From Anaerolineae bacterium (GTDB taxonomy: Bacteria > Chloroflexota > Anaerolineae > B4-G1 > DUEL01): a DNA stretch of 58,559 nucleotides. A program made the position numbers and the translations under genes. The DNA lies in the NCBI GenBank assembly GCA_041082215.1, contig JBDOIF010000149.1:1-58559 (forward strand), in the 5' to 3' direction. The notes under the pieces were generated by a model. That model saw only the letters and a program-made list of their open reading frames with translations, was not told where the DNA came from and ran no database searches. Numbering within the stretch: the stretch's first letter is position 1; each line of letters begins with the position of its first letter. Shown here in pieces: positions 19,928 to 25,412 of this stretch.

Positions 19928-21286
19928 TCACGCGGCCACGTCGGGCAGGTCTTTCAGCGCTTCTCGCACCCGCTCTGCCGGGTATTCGTAGTTCTCCAGT
20001 CTCCCCGCGAAGTACTGTTCGTAGGCGCCCATATCAAAATGGCCGTGCCCGCTGAAGTTGAAGAGGATGACCCGTTTCTCTCCGGCCTCCCGCGCGGCCA
20101 GCGCCTCGTCTATCGCAGCCCGGACGGCGTGAGCTGTCTCCGGCGCGGGGATGAAGCCCTCGGTCCGGGCAAACAGCACCGCCGCCTCAAAGACCGCCAG
20201 TTGGGGGTAGGCGACCGGTTCAATGTACCCGTGCCGATGGAGCGCCGAGACAACCGGAGCCATGCCGTGATAGCGCAGTCCCCCGGCGTGGATGCCCGCC
20301 GGGATAAAGGTGTGCCCCAGGGTGTCCATCTTGGCGATGGGGGCCAGGTGGGCCGTGTCGCCGTAGTCGTAGGCGTAGACCCCCCGGGTCATGCTGGGGC
20401 AGGCGGTGGGCTCCACGGCGACGAAGCGGGTGGAAGAGCCGTTCTGGAGCCGGTCGCGCAGGAAGGGGAAAGCCAGTCCGGAAAAGTTGCTCCCTCCTCC
20501 TACGCATCCGATCACCACATCAGGATACTCCCCCGCCATCTCCATCTGAAGCCGCGCCTCCTCGCCGATGACCGTCTGATGGAGCAGGACGTGGTTGAGG
20601 ACGCTGCCCAGGGAGTACTTCGTATCGTCGTGGGTAGCGGCGACCTCCACCGCCTCACTGATGGCGATGCCCAGACTGCCCGGCGAATCGGGGTCCCGCT
20701 CCAGGATGGACTGCCCCGAACGGGTCTCCGGGCTGGGGCTGGGGACGACGCGCGCGCCCCACGCCTCCATCAACACCCGGCGGTAGGGCTTCTGGTAGTA
20801 ACTGACCTTCACCATATAGACCCCGCACTCCATCCCGAAGAGGTTACAGGCGAAGGCCAGTGCGCTCCCCCACTGCCCGGCGCCCGTCTCGGTGACCAGC
20901 CGCTTCACCCCGGCCTCCTTGCTGTAGAAGGCCTGGGCGACGGCGGTGTTGGGCTTGTGGCTGCCTGGAGGGCTTGCCCCCTCGTACTTGTAGTAGATAT
21001 GGGCCGGCGTATCCAGCGCCCGCTCCAACCGTTGGGCGCGGACCAGCGGGGTGGGCCGCCAGAGCCGGTAGACCTCCCGCACCGGCCCCGGAATCTCCAC
21101 GTACCGCTCCCGCGTCTCCTCCTGCTCGATCAGCGCGTCACAGAACAGGGGCGGCGGGAGCCGGGTCGGCTCGCGGGTCACCGGATGCAGAAGCGGCGGG
21201 ACCTCAAAGGGCAGGTCGGCGACAACGTTGTACCAGGCAGCCGGTAGCCGGTCCTGGGGAAGCAAGAAACGGTTCTGCTCTTTCAT
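19928..21286 (-). CDS. trpB2: Tryptophan synthase beta chain, type 2 (stand-alone TrpB2)
   Basis: GSHKPNTA (PLP lysine), [26 protein letters not shown] and NFSGHG. SD GGGAGG before ATG 21286. Confidence 0.93.
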
Positions 21287-21315
21287 CTCGCACCTCCCTG
21301 ATTTGGTAAATTGGT

Positions 21316-22317
21316 TCATGGTAGAGAGGTCAATCCGGTTGCTTCGCGGACAAGTCTCATCGTCTCTTCCGCTTCGGCGCGCATGCGGCTGTTCCCTGCG
21401 GCGAGGATTTCCTCCACCAGCCCCGGCCGGGACGCGTAGTAGGCTCGCCGCTGGCGGATAGGCTCCAGAAAGTTGTTGAGCGCTGCTGACAATCGCTCTT
21501 TGACCTCCACATCGCCCACTTTACCGCTCCGGTAGCGCGCCTTCAGGTTCTCCACCTCCTCTCTGTCGGGATTGAAGAAATCGTGGTAAATAAAGACGGG
21601 ATTGCCCTCCACACGTCCGGGCACATCGGCCCGTATCCGCTGAGGGTCGGTGACCATGCGGCGGACCTTCTCCCGTACCGTTTCGGCATCGTCGGAAAGA
21701 TAGATGACATTGCCCAGAGATTTGCTGGCCTTGGCCTGCCCGTCCGTACCCCCCAGCACGTCGCCGACCAGCGCTTCCGGTTCAGGGAAGACCTCTCCGT
21801 AGAGATGGTTGAATCGCCGGGCGACCTCCCGGGCGACCTCCACGTGGGCCTCGTTATCCCGGGCGACCGGCACCAGATGGGCGCGGGGGAGCAGGATGTC
21901 GGCGGCCTGGAGCACCGGGTAGCCCATCAGCCCGAAGGGAACCGACCGCAGATGGGCATCCCGGGCCATTTCTTTGATGCTGGGCACGCGCTCCAGCCGA
22001 GGAACCGTCACCAGCATTTCAAAGAGCAGGTTCAGTTCGTAGGTGCCGGGAATGGCCGACTGGACGAAGATCGTACACCTCTCTGGATCAATGCCCACCG
22101 CCAGGTAGTCCAGCACAATCTCCCGGATGTACTGAGGGGTCTCCAGGATGGACTGCTTATCTGGCCGCGTGGTCAGAACATGCAGGTCGGCAATGATGAA
22201 GAAGCAATCGTACTCTCCCTGCAATCGCACCCGGTTTGCCAGACTGCCCACGTAGTGGCCCAGGTGCAATTTGCCTGTGGGACGATCTCCGGTCAGGATA
22301 CGCTTCTTGGGGTTCAT
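21316..22317 (-). CDS. trpS: Tryptophan--tRNA ligase
   Basis: [16 protein letters not shown] (HIGH motif), [10 protein letters not shown], and KASKS (KMSKS variant). Preceded by a Trp T-box. Confidence 0.95.
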
Positions 22318-22344
22318 CGCGCCCTCCCTATGCGTTCTCTGCGG

Positions 22345-22686
22345 CAAAACAAAAACGCCCGTCCCATTGCCGGGACGGGCGTTTTCCCCGTGGTGCCACC
22401 CCGCTGAGGGGCCTTTCCCACAAACAAAAACGCGCCAGTGACGGCGCGTTGTGGGAAAAGCCAGCCTCACTCCTTCGCAGGTACGAACCAGCTACCAGCA
22501 ACCGGTCCAATACCCTCAGCCCGGATAACGGTGGCGGCTCCGGCCCGGACTACTGCCCCGCTGGGCGGGGGTTCGGCGGGCGACTCCCAGGCCCATTCAG
22601 CACCGGCGCTGGTATCGGGCTCGCAGCCAAAGACCCGACTCTCTGGACCCCGCTTCGATGCCTACTCTTCCTGATCTTCGTCTTTC
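22345..22686 (-). ncRNA. T-box riboswitch leader, Trp specifier
   Basis: Minus strand shows stem I elements AGGAAGAGTAG, CAGAGAG and GCTG; specifier GAA-TGG (UGG at 22593-22595); AGTAG and CCGTTA motifs; T-box GGGTGGCACCACG; and terminator ACGCCCGTCCC/GGGACGGGCGT followed by a T-run. Confidence 0.93.
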
Positions 22687-22708: not shown

Positions 22709-22737
22709 ATTGTACTACGAAAAGCCCGTGATGTCAA
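22709..22737 (-). promoter_or_regulatory. Sigma70-type promoter of the T-box/trpS leader
   Basis: TTGACA (22737-22732), 17 bp spacer, TACAAT (22714-22709). Confidence 0.75.
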
Positions 22738-23052
22738 CTATAGATGCGGAAGCAGGGCCTCCTCCAGGGCCTGTTTGGGCCGATAACCGACGATCCGCTC
22801 CACCTCCTTCCCATCCTTGAAAAGGATCAGGGTGGGAATGCCCATAATACCCAACCGGGCTGGGACGGCGGGATTGGCATCCACGTCCATTTTAGCTACC
22901 TTGAGGCGACCGTTGTATTCGCGGGCCACCTCCTCTACTACCGGTGCGATCATCCGGCAGGGGCCACACCATTCGGCCCAGAAATCCACCAGCGTGGGCA
23001 GGCTGGATTGGAGCACCTCGCTTTCGAACGTCTCGTCGGTTACCTGAACCAT
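22738..23052 (-). CDS. trxA: Thioredoxin
   Basis: VDFWAEWCGPCRMIAP and GIPTL. Confidence 0.96.
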   Translation of the reverse strand: MVQVTDETFESEVLQSSLPTLVDFWAEWCGPCRMIAPVVEEVAREYNGRLKVAKMDVDANPAVPARLGIMGIPTLILFKDGKEVERIVGYRPKQALEEALLPHL

Positions 23053-23087
23053 GGTCCTCTCCTGGAGAAGTGTCGGGGGGGATTATC

Positions 23088-24725
23088 CTACAGACCCGGC
23101 CATCTGTCAAGCAGGGAAGAGACCCGCTCCGGCAGCTCCTTCAGCGACACCGTCAGCCGCTCCTTTTCCCAGCGGGGTTTGACCTCCGCCCCTCCCGCTT
23201 CCACACTGCGTCGGCTCAGGGTGACCCGCACCGGGCAACCGATGAGGTCGGCGTCGGTGAACTTCACCCCCGCGCTCTCGTTCCGGTCATCGTAGAGGAC
23301 AGAGAGGCCTGCCCGCTGCAGCCGGTCGCAGGCCTCACCGGCCGCCTGCTGCACCTCCTGCTGCCTCAGCAGGACGAGGTGCACGTCGAAAGGGGCCAGA
23401 ACTGGCGGCCAGAGGATGCCGTACTCGTCGCGATGCGTCTCTACAACGGCTGCCAGCAGGCGAAAAAGGTCCACCGCCCAGGTCTCCATCGTCGCTTCCC
23501 GCTCCTTCCCCTCCGCATCCAGGTAGGCCGGCCCGGAGGCCCCGCCCGGCCTGCGGCAACGGCACAGCTCGACAGCCGGCCCGGCGGCAAGCGGCTCGCC
23601 ACAATGGGGGCAGGGATAGCCAGCCTGAGCCCGCGCCACGTCCGCCAGCAGGGTGACGGCGAAATCGCGGGGATAATTGACGCCGGTGAGGTGATACCCT
23701 TCCCGGTTGGCCCCGGCGACGAAATTCAGCCCTGCCTCGATGGACAGGTCCCCCACCACCAGCACGCCATCGCCCTCCAGACCGACCCGCACCCGGAGGC
23801 CCACCGGCGACGCATATCCGGGCTCGGCCCCTGCGGCGCGGATCTCCGCGTCGGTGGCAGCCCGCAGCCTGCCGCCCCCCAGAAGCCGAAGCAGCTTGGG
23901 TTCGCTCACCTCCAGGTCGCCCCGGATGACGACGAAGACCAGCGTGGCTCCCCCCTGGTCCCCCCGCTCCCAGCTATAGAACACCGCCTTCAGGGTCCGG
24001 TCGGTCGGCACGCCGACGAACGAGGCCACATCGGCGATGGTGGGACAATCCGGGGTAGCCACGGGCCGGACATCCGCCAGAGGCTCCGAAGGGCGCGGGG
24101 GCAAACGGAAACGGGCCGCATCGGCTGCGGCCGCATAGCCACAGGCCGGGCAACGGACCAGTTTCCCATCTCCAGCCGGGTGGGGGAGCAGGAAGCCCGG
24201 CATCCCGTCCCCATCCCCTGCCCCGATCTCTACTGGATTCAACCCACAACGGGCGAAGAGGCCTCGAAGCAGTTCCAGCAACCGTTCCCGACCGTGGCCG
24301 GGTCCATCCCCCTGCGGGTAAAGGCCGACCACCTCCAGAAGGCGGACCTCCCGCAGCCGCCACGGCCCCTGGGGGGCCTGCGTCTCCCGGCTCCCAAAGG
24401 CGTAAAGGAAAGACGGCAGGTCCCGATAGGAGCGCACCTCCCTCCTGACCCACCCTGTCATCGCCCGGTCCCTTGCCCCCTCTTCCTCCCACAAGGCCGG
24501 GGGCAACCGGACCTCCTGCCCCCCTGCGGCCTCTATCGCCTCCCGCAGCAGCTCCTCGATCCGCCGGAGGACCCTTGCGCCCAGGGGAAGCCAGACGTAC
24601 CCCCCACCCTCCAGAGGGCGGAGCAGCCCTGCCCGAACGGCAAGCTGGAGGCCAGGGGAGTGGACCTCGGCAGGAGCCTCTCGCAATGTCCGGCCGAACA
24701 GTTGAGAGATCCGCATCGCCCTCAT
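23088..24725 (-). CDS. Prolyl-tRNA synthetase paralog with degenerate catalytic core; INS editing and anticodon-binding domains retained
   Basis: ProRS-like N-terminus (MRISQLFGRTLREAP), INS domain (TLKAVFY...GYASPVG) and anticodon domain (LYDDRNESAGVKFTDADLIG). Class II motifs 2 and 3 are not recognisable. Confidence 0.85.
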   Translation of the reverse strand: MRAMRISQLFGRTLREAPAEVHSPGLQLAVRAGLLRPLEGGGYVWLPLGARVLRRIEELLREAIEAAGGQEVRLPPALWEEEGARDRAMTGWVRREVRSYRDLPSFLYAFGSRETQAPQGPWRLREVRLLEVVGLYPQGDGPGHGRERLLELLRGLFARCGLNPVEIGAGDGDGMPGFLLPHPAGDGKLVRCPACGYAAAADAARFRLPPRPSEPLADVRPVATPDCPTIADVASFVGVPTDRTLKAVFYSWERGDQGGATLVFVVIRGDLEVSEPKLLRLLGGGRLRAATDAEIRAAGAEPGYASPVGLRVRVGLEGDGVLVVGDLSIEAGLNFVAGANREGYHLTGVNYPRDFAVTLLADVARAQAGYPCPHCGEPLAAGPAVELCRCRRPGGASGPAYLDAEGKEREATMETWAVDLFRLLAAVVETHRDEYGILWPPVLAPFDVHLVLLRQQEVQQAAGEACDRLQRAGLSVLYDDRNESAGVKFTDADLIGCPVRVTLSRRSVEAGGAEVKPRWEKERLTVSLKELPERVSSLLDRWPGL

Positions 24726-24740: not shown

Positions 24741-25412
24741 TTATCCGCGCCCAAGGATTTCCCGGAACACACTGCAGGCCTTTCCTGTGTGGGACTGACA
24801 GGCAGCGGGGACGTCGGCGGCCGGGACGACTGACCAGGCCCGCAGCAGACGGACGAGGTGGCACAGCGGGAGCCCCACGACGTTGGCGTAGCATCCCTCC
24901 CATGAGGCGACGGGCCGGAAAACGGGATGCTGGATTGCGTAAGCTCCGGCCTTATCCAGCGGGTCGCCGCTGGCGATGTAGGCAACCAGCTCTACGTCGC
25001 TGTAGGGCCGCATCAGCACGGTCGTCTCCGCCACTTCGACCGCCTCCCGCCCCTGACCCACTACCGCAACGCCCGTGCAGACCCTGTGCGGCCGCCCCCG
25101 CAGGCGGCGCAACATCGCCCCGGCCTCGGCGGCGTCGGCTGGCTTGCCCAGCACCTCCCCCCTGAGCGCCACGACCGTATCGCAGCCCACCACCAGCGCC
25201 TCAGGATGGAGCGCGGCAACCACACGGGCCTTGGCGAGCGCCAGACGGCCGGCCATATCCTGCGGCGCTTCGCCAGCTTCGGCTTCCTCCTCCATCTGCG
25301 CTGCCGCCACCTGGAAGGGCAGCCCCAGAAGGGAAAACAGCTCTTGCCGGCGGGGGGAGCTGGAAGCCAGGAGCAGGCCGATCCGGGGCTGGCCTTTACC
25401 TTTGCAGCCCAT
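24741..25412 (-). CDS. maf: Maf-family nucleoside triphosphate pyrophosphatase
   Basis: LASSSPRR, GCDTVV, LGKP, DKAGAYAIQ and NVVGLP. Confidence 0.93.
   Translation of the reverse strand: MGCKGKGQPRIGLLLASSSPRRQELFSLLGLPFQVAAAQMEEEAEAGEAPQDMAGRLALAKARVVAALHPEALVVGCDTVVALRGEVLGKPADAAEAGAMLRRLRGRPHRVCTGVAVVGQGREAVEVAETTVLMRPYSDVELVAYIASGDPLDKAGAYAIQHPVFRPVASWEGCYANVVGLPLCHLVRLLRAWSVVPAADVPAACQSHTGKACSVFREILGRG

Follow-up and report, generated by a model that had tools for sequence, protein, structure and literature searches.

What does a tRNA synthetase do once the site that charges tRNA is gone, and why is its gene kept? The question is raised by an open reading frame at 23088..24725 (minus strand) of a 58,559-nucleotide stretch of Anaerolineae bacterium DNA (assembly GCA_041082215.1, contig JBDOIF010000149.1; hereafter, the window). 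The frame is uninterrupted and encodes a 545-residue protein resembling prolyl-tRNA synthetase (ProRS). A preliminary description, made from the sequence alone, held that its aminoacylation site had been destroyed while its editing and anticodon-binding domains were intact, and proposed three possible roles: an anticodon-guided trans-editing deacylase, a heterodimer partner of a working ProRS, or a tRNA-binding regulator. Here, the protein is confirmed as a full-length homolog of bacterial-type (P-type) ProRS that has lost the motifs of the synthetic site and kept the INS editing domain and the anticodon-binding domain (ABD). It is probably an anticodon-guided trans-editing deacylase, with Ala-tRNAPro its likely substrate; such an enzyme would stand to ProRS as crenarchaeal ThrRS-ed stands to ThrRS, and would have evolved at least twice.

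Pfam scans place two domains in the protein, tRNA_edit (PF04073; 66.9 bits against a gathering cut-off of 25.5, 2.3e-18, residues 224-350) and HGTP_anticodon (PF03129; 57.2 bits against a cut-off of 21, 1.9e-15, residues 450-537). The class II core family, tRNA-synt_2b (PF00587), was not found by the same scan even at E<=1. Two curated ProRS equivalog families match along the length of the protein and score below their cut-offs (NF006625, 312.1 bits against 558; TIGR00409, 221.3 bits against 306.7). TIGR00011 (YbaK) is absent from the family matches, and NF011500 (ThrRS-ed) matches residues 415-536 only, at 23 bits against a cut-off of 362. The likelier start codon is the second ATG, at 24716, which gives a protein of 542 residues: the first ATG is directly abutted by the Shine-Dalgarno-like GGGAGAGG, and both database entry P0001 (542 residues) and the N-terminus of E. 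coli ProS start at the position of the second.

Loss of the charging site is evident at the residue level, for which E. faecalis ProRS (PDB entry 2j3l) and E. coli ProS (taken from NC_000913.3) served as references. Relative to both, approximately 25 residues across the ...GPTHEE segment are gone, so that the proline-binding loop is deleted. Motif 2 has a three-residue deletion in its loop and carries Thr and Ala in place of E. coli R140 and E142, and the GIEVGH stretch is replaced. These lesions agree with the preliminary description, and all of the strings quoted in it are present: LWEEEGARDRAM (residues 78-89), FGSRETQAPQGPWRLREVRLLEVVGL (110-135), TLKAV (244-248), PGYASP (302-307), AVELCRCR (384-391), METWAVDLFR (413-422), and DDR...GVKF.DADLIG (479-500). 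In motif 3 (METWAVDLFR), the glycines are lost, but the Arg equivalent to E. coli R450 remains. R151, R153, and E154 (E. coli numbering) are also still in place. Survival of these four positions, together with a core whose fold is predicted with fair confidence and which is under some constraint, is what can be said for a protein that is still a ligase, activating proline or another acid at a non-canonical site in a remodeled core, or charging a different acceptor. Such an activity is very improbable, given that the proline-binding segment is deleted, R140/E142 and the motif 3 glycines are lost, PF00587 is not matched, and copies of this kind never stand alone in a genome, as detailed below. 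R450, moreover, is not retained in the sister degenerate lineages, and the remnants of motifs 2 and 3 vary among nearly all clusters, both in 120 close relatives and in 150 representatives from a wider search. The replacement sequences differ among lineages, and hence no alternative synthetic site is conserved.

The editing and anticodon domains are, as had been claimed, intact. Both exceed their Pfam cut-offs, and T257, K279, D350, and H369 of E. coli INS, as well as the G-x-x-x-P loop, are all identical in the window protein. E. coli I263 is invariant, and L266 is replaced by Val. T257, D350, and H369 are positions that we take, from the E. coli literature, to belong to the INS pocket, and the INS lysine reportedly positions the misacylated tRNA. 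A feature absent in the aligned E. coli and E. faecalis enzymes is a pair of CxxC motifs on either side of INS. In 107 relatives, intact and degenerate, no variation is seen at Cys189, Cys369, or Cys372, and Cys192 is conserved in at least 90%; zinc-ribbon Pfam matches are weak, fall below cut-off, and serve as a pointer to the CxxC pairs only. The pairs may form a lineage-specific, putative zinc knuckle that clamps the base of the INS insertion.

An AlphaFold2 model built with 107 relatives has a predicted local distance difference test score (pLDDT) of 90.1 and a predicted template modeling score (pTM) of 0.88, with local values of 70-87 in the core and 92-97 in INS and ABD. The best Foldseek match of the model is 2j3l (TM score 0.84). 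A model from an alignment of degenerate sequences only (pLDDT 83.2) has the same secondary-structure layout and is weakest at residues 1-40 and in the motif 2 loop. The modeling shows a predicted scaffold that is retained, and carries no information on activity.

Relatives labeled Anaerolineae or Chloroflexota in the databases are either 570-600 residues long with PF00587, or 520-560 residues long without it. Their source names are inconsistent ("proline--tRNA ligase," "YbaK/EbsC family protein," "tRNA ligase C-terminal domain-containing protein"), and as a result ProRS gene counts and pathway completeness calls in Chloroflexota can be wrong. A homolog is present in 36 of 41 genomes of the same order. 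The open frame noted at the outset is general: internal stops were found in the matches of none of these 36 genomes, nor in 32 low-scoring copies from across the class. Thirty-five aligned orthologs fall into three groups. Intact orthologs keep motif 2 and the other charging motifs; degenerate orthologs are of at least three kinds (the window protein with genus g5, genus g2, and genus g13, which belongs to another family); and two orthologs, G003 and G025, are partly altered. The editing and anticodon domains are nearly identical across all 35.

Wider sampling gives the same picture. Among 120 close relatives, 77 are intact, 37 have the proline-binding segment deleted (a count that includes the window protein itself, one fragment, and one sequence with motifs otherwise intact), and six keep the segment but have lost catalytic arginines. 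The residues at INS positions 257/279/350/369 (E. coli numbering) are T-K-D-H in 119 of the 120. A profile made from 35 degenerate sequences was searched against 1.84 billion representatives and gave 1931 matches at E<=1e-30. The best 150 of these, which span more than 130 clusters at 50% identity, comprise 83 sequences with the segment deleted, 10 intact sequences, four fragments, and 53 that keep the segment but fail the R140/E142/R151/R450 test, a class that over-counts by at least three (P0137, P0143, and P0148 have Asp for E142 and motifs otherwise intact, like the intact relative G010). T-K-D-H is present in 149 of the best 150, the sole exception being a fragment without the INS region.

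Constraint on each domain was estimated as the ratio of nonsynonymous to synonymous substitution (dN/dS) by the Nei-Gojobori method (NG86), with partial sequences excluded. For the N-terminal part of the core, INS, the C-terminal part of the core, and ABD, respectively, the values are 0.150, 0.196, 0.137, and 0.246 among intact enzymes (45 pairs); 0.294, 0.192, 0.330, and 0.275 within the degenerate genus g5 (45 pairs); 0.372, 0.214, 0.539, and 0.271 for the window protein against g5 (10 pairs); 0.507, 0.237, 0.658, and 0.275 for degenerate against intact proteins (130 pairs); and 0.368, 0.163, 0.327, and 0.185 for the independent g13 pair (one pair). The core is the most constrained part of the intact enzymes and the least constrained part of the degenerate ones, while constraint on INS and ABD is unchanged. 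Decay is therefore domain-selective rather than uniform, as the preliminary description had it. All domains have dN/dS below 1. A pseudogene is ruled out by these values, together with the lack of internal stops and the retention of T-K-D-H. The further claim of selection for a new role stands in part: domain constraint argues for selection, but the role appears to be the old one, editing, retained after charging was lost.

INS is the best-conserved domain in the degenerate lineages (84% identity within g5). Its identity is 66% between degenerate and intact proteins and 68% among intact ones, which bears on the choice of substrate. Specificity in the INS superfamily has diverged despite similar active sites, as in YbaK, ProXp-x, and ProXp-ST1/2 (PMC11295145), and the residue aligned with E. 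coli L266 is Val, so a trans-editing deacylase could be envisaged for Cys-, Ser-, or Abu-tRNAPro, or for another non-protein amino acid on tRNAPro. This domain, however, is orthologous to the INS of intact P-type enzymes and no more diverged from it than those are from one another, and I263 is invariant; a change of substrate is thus improbable, and deacylation of Ala-tRNAPro remains the preferred reading.

The number of origins was assessed on a phylogeny restricted to the alignment columns of INS and ABD (32 rows, excluding the partial rows G013, G020, and G021). Three changes are required to place the degenerate state on this phylogeny, at least two of them imposed by well-supported branches, and the branches of degenerate copies do not exceed those of intact ones in length. 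The degenerate state thus appears to have evolved at least twice independently. These data also bear on whether the gene is a relic that is being lost, its frame open so far by chance or through polar effects in a maf-proS-trx operon. P-type genes do disappear, none being found in 26 of the 151 class genomes sampled, and a graded series of decay exists. This is nevertheless the least credible of the alternatives, with hardly any weight left to it: frames are open in all copies, INS and ABD have the same dN/dS as in functional enzymes, T-K-D-H is unchanged over more than 130 clusters that differ by more than 50% in sequence, and at least two independent origins led to the same outcome.

Gene order identifies the source of the degenerate copy. 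Adjacency of proS and the thioredoxin gene trx is common to degenerate (G001, G011, G013) and intact (G002, G003, G006, G007, G009) genomes, and G006, which has an intact proS, displays the order maf-proS-trx-trpS, identical to that of the window. It follows that the window gene is no distinct paralog but the ancestral proS itself, which decayed at its original locus.

A canonical ProRS had been expected elsewhere in the genome, and was found. The assembly to which the window belongs (G000; 174 contigs, 96% complete) carries on contig C44 an E-type ProRS of the Thermus/archaeal-like kind (TIGR00408, 566.5 bits against a cut-off of 437). Its frame terminates in a C-terminal Tyr, which is characteristic of E-type ProRS (PMC11229370), and no PF04073 match was found at its locus in a scan of the genome; E-type ProRS is described as lacking INS (PMC11229370). 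The presence of this enzyme rules out the window gene as the sole proS. A heterodimer of the window protein with the working ProRS was set aside, the working enzyme being of the other architectural type. ThrRS is located on contig C23.

Two tRNA_edit domains only are present in the genome, that of the window gene and that of a protein on contig C79. The latter is closest to T. thermophilus TTHA1699 (2cx5; 2.2e-23), a structure labeled ProXp-x in a 2024 review (PMC11295145), and thus neither of the two domains detected by the tRNA_edit scan represents a ProXp-ala-like protein. The C79 domain lies in a 288-residue frame (L048, G000:C79, 187-1053, minus strand) with a C-terminal nucleotidyltransferase domain (NTP_transf_2, 9.3e-09; MntA-antitoxin-like matches are weak). 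Either one fused gene or two genes read as one would give this frame; frames around this type of domain in relatives are mostly 165-210 residues long. In genus g5, the INS of the window-gene ortholog is the sole tRNA_edit domain found in 12 of 13 genomes.

Degenerate copies consistently occur beside an E-type enzyme. Within the order, E-type ProRS is present in 18/18 genomes with a degenerate P-type copy, in 13/17 with an intact or partly altered one, and in 6/6 without P-type. The same was seen in 151 species sampled evenly across the class, in which P-type copies were scored by TIGR00409. All 32 genomes with a P-type score of 130-250 bits have the E-type enzyme, as do all 14 at 300-480 bits, so that a weakened P-type copy is never alone (46/46). 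At 500 bits or above, 47 of 79 genomes have the E-type enzyme and 32 do not; of 26 genomes in which no P-type was found, 24 have E-type and two, both incomplete assemblies, have neither. Families of the class with low-scoring P-type copies number at least 13. No E-type ProRS was found in the two genomes of the order with partly altered orthologs, G003 (L034; 94% complete) and G025 (L044; 97% complete), whose P-type catalytic motifs are changed: G003 has Gly at the R151 position and a changed motif 3, and still scores 505.8 bits, while G025 has MSYDE for MTHEE and Met at the R140 position. These variants may still be able to charge tRNAPro; otherwise, the assemblies must lack an E-type gene that the genomes contain. 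ProRS gene content in the class is unusually fluid; two full-length E-type ProRS matches exceed the cut-off in each of G181 and G157, and G148 has two low-scoring P-type matches.

Among the three roles first proposed, the trans-editing deacylase is favored by the evidence, since T-K-D-H is kept in 119/120 and 149/150 relatives and INS depends on ABD for its choice of tRNA. INS has no tRNA specificity of its own and relies on the binding of G35/G36 by ABD (PMC3973320, PMC11295145), and full-length ProRS is counted among the enzymes able to compete with EF-Tu and edit in trans (PMC4787780). On balance, the data suggest a class-wide system, which might be termed ProRS-ed, in which P-type enzymes living beside an editing-less E-type enzyme were stripped of charging and kept as anticodon-guided trans-editors on at least two occasions. 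A lineage holding the ancestral P-type proS would also have carried an E-type ProRS, which lacks an editing domain. The P-type enzyme would thereby no longer have been needed for charging, and its synthetic site would have decayed, presumably in that order. The protein would have been kept for the ability of INS to hydrolyze mischarged tRNAPro, most likely Ala-tRNAPro produced by the E-type enzyme, with ABD supplying specificity for tRNAPro through G35/G36. The need of INS for ABD in recognizing tRNAPro would explain why ABD and the connecting core were retained, and the protein was not pared to a single domain. The dead class II core may serve as the scaffold, and probably also as the dimer interface, that sets the geometry of INS and ABD.

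Conservation of ABD and of the INS lysine, and the constraint remaining on the core, would also be expected of a non-hydrolytic binder of tRNAPro or aminoacyl-tRNAPro, which might chaperone or sequester its ligand, act as a regulator, or pass tRNA on to the E-type ProRS or the ProXp-x-like protein. Roles within complexes do exist in the superfamily, YbaK acting in a ternary complex with ProRS and tRNA (PMC11295145). A binder is nonetheless unlikely, as conservation at the four INS positions, and over much of the rest of INS, goes beyond what ABD-mediated binding would require, and the E-type enzyme has a different architecture.

Several points weigh against a role in editing Ala-tRNAPro. K279 may be conserved for contacts with the CCA end and not for hydrolysis, and constraint persists on the dead core (dN/dS 0.3-0.66 rather than approximately 1), which is explained only by the presumed scaffold or dimer role. 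The window gene may not be the sole safeguard of its genome, given the ProXp-x-like protein on C79; proteins of the ProXp-x kind deacylate Ala-tRNAPro to a lesser extent (2024 review, PMC11295145). Some relatives, such as G032 (100% complete) and G039, have an E-type ProRS and no tRNA_edit domain, so tRNAPro editing is dispensable in some lineages. The NG86 values are pairwise and non-independent, carry no significance test, and are near saturation in the deeper pairs (dS 0.9-1.5); the co-occurrence counts likewise come from kin genomes and are non-independent. A literature search found no activity, expression, or binding data for the window protein or its family. Among the sequencing runs listed as sharing its sequence words, none is recorded as RNA; two runs labeled hot-springs metagenome share small fractions of the words (0.23 and 0.18), which bears on neither expression nor habitat. 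With these points taken into account, anticodon-guided editing is still the role that the protein probably has.

Features of the window gene and its immediate neighbors are listed in Table 1.

Table 1. Positions of the ProRS-like gene, its domains and motifs, and the adjacent genes in the window
Feature	Position	Strand	Basis or remark
ProRS-like gene	23088..24725	-	open frame; likely start 24716
Class II core, N-terminal part (residues 1-215), degenerate	24081..24725	-	alignments; no PF00587
Motif-1-like GGQEVRLPPALWEEEG	24477-24524	-	alignment
Junction of the ~25-residue deletion, proline-binding segment	24459-24494	-	alignment
Motif 2 remnant	24321-24398	-	alignment
CPACG, first CxxC, entry to INS	24138..24152	-	pairs with second CxxC
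INS editing domain (residues 216-378)	23592..24080	-	PF04073
Thr in VATPDC (INS)	24045-24062	-	aligned with E. coli T257
Lys in TLKAV (INS)	23982-23996	-	aligned with E. coli K279
PGYASP loop (INS)	23805-23822	-	G-x-x-x-P loop
Asp in VVGDLS (INS)	23742-23759	-	aligned with E. coli D350
His in GYHLTG (INS)	23682-23699	-	aligned with E. coli H369
CPHCG, second CxxC	23598-23612	-	flanks INS
Class II core, C-terminal part (residues 379-443), degenerate	23397..23591	-	alignments
GIEVGH-stretch remnant	23553-23576	-	alignment
Motif 3 remnant	23460-23489	-	alignment
Anticodon-binding domain (residues 444-545)	23091..23396	-	PF03129
DDRNESAGVKFTDADLIGCPVR within the anticodon-binding domain	23226-23291	-	conserved stretch
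maf	24741..25412	-	directly upstream; stop ~15-25 nt before the ProRS-like start
Thioredoxin gene (trx)	22738..23052	-	directly downstream of the ProRS-like gene

The short distance between maf and the ProRS-like gene, and their common strand, make it likely that the two are co-transcribed. They belong to an operon-like, tRNA-synthetase-rich run consisting of DUF1015, maf, the proS-like gene, trx, trpS, and PALP. The trpS gene (a class I W/Y synthetase) overlaps the gene of a pyridoxal phosphate-dependent enzyme downstream of it by 4 nt (19928-22470, minus strand); this last gene is of the tryptophan-synthase-beta-like kind (PALP). A promoter scan of the region gave three matches against 0.9 expected. 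Two near-consensus sigma-70-like matches, each 11/12 and on the minus strand, bracket trx: the upstream one (23082-23110) falls within the 3' end of the proS-like gene, and the other (22709-22737) comes just after trx.

If the proposed role is correct, the protein represents a new architecture among trans-editing factors, a full-length ProRS without charging that keeps INS and ABD. No account of a ProRS lacking the synthetic site and keeping these two domains was found in a literature search confined to the main texts of freely available papers. The role fits known biochemistry, in that INS needs the anticodon domain of ProRS to choose its tRNA and the window protein keeps that domain. Living genomes would hold the whole series, from P-type only, through both enzymes active, motifs eroded, and segment deleted, to gene lost. 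It is interesting to speculate that such a series amounts to a natural test of how far INS depends on the remainder of the enzyme; a large family with graded decay could reveal which elements of a class II core are required solely for scaffolding.

Compared with P-type ProRS (E. coli ProS; 2j3l), the window protein is homologous over its full length and has the same three-domain order, conserved INS and ABD residues, and a locus shared with the intact proS of sister genera; 2j3l is its best sequence match in the PDB (3.1e-70). It differs in lacking the synthetic site and PF00587, in scoring below both curated cut-offs, and, relative to the E. coli and E. faecalis enzymes, in the lineage-specific CxxC...CxxC around INS. 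In Bacillus thuringiensis, P-type and E-type ProRS (BtProRS1/BtProRS2) coexist and are both expressed and active (PMC11229370). That pair resembles the presumed ancestral state and the 47 of 151 class genomes in which both enzymes score highly, whereas the P-type copy of the window has lost its charging site.

Retention of a synthetase relative that does not charge has a precedent in another setting. HisZ is the regulatory subunit of ATP phosphoribosyltransferase, a non-translational role. It is a class II synthetase paralog without aminoacylation activity, yet retained (PMC5388404); in contrast to that new role, here an original sub-function, editing, appears to have been retained.

Closer in function are the free-standing editing proteins ProXp-ala, YbaK, and ProXp-x, whose editing domains are homologous to that of the window protein (PF04073). 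ProXp-ala clears Ala-tRNAPro where ProRS lacks INS (PMC3973320), and it is this job that is proposed here for the window protein. Members of the INS superfamily other than INS itself are described as single-domain proteins in the available text of the 2024 review (PMC11295145). Free-standing ProXp-ala and YbaK have approximately 150-170 residues, compared with 545 residues and three domains in the window protein. ProXp-ala reads the acceptor stem (G72/A73), and YbaK, which has no tRNA specificity, relies on a complex with ProRS (PMC11295145); the window protein, by contrast, keeps the ProRS core and ABD, and should therefore read G35/G36.

A further parallel is the division of labor in crenarchaeal ThrRS, where ThrRS-cat charges without editing and ThrRS-ed, which does not aminoacylate, deacylates in trans (PMC3592468, PMC7916415, PMC11295145). 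Archaeal ThrRS-ed is the only synthetase-sized, editing-only enzyme named in the available text of the 2024 review (PMC11295145). It follows the logic proposed here, that of a synthetase-derived editor with an attached anticodon-binding domain beside a charging enzyme that lacks editing. The two systems differ in synthetase, editing fold, and domain of life, and are analogs rather than homologs except for the shared class IIa anticodon domain. Moreover, the partners in the present case are two ProRS architectures and not split halves of one enzyme, and the activity of the editor is predicted from sequence. Should the prediction hold, the Anaerolineae system would provide the ThrRS-cat/ThrRS-ed split with its first counterpart in ProRS and its first in bacteria.

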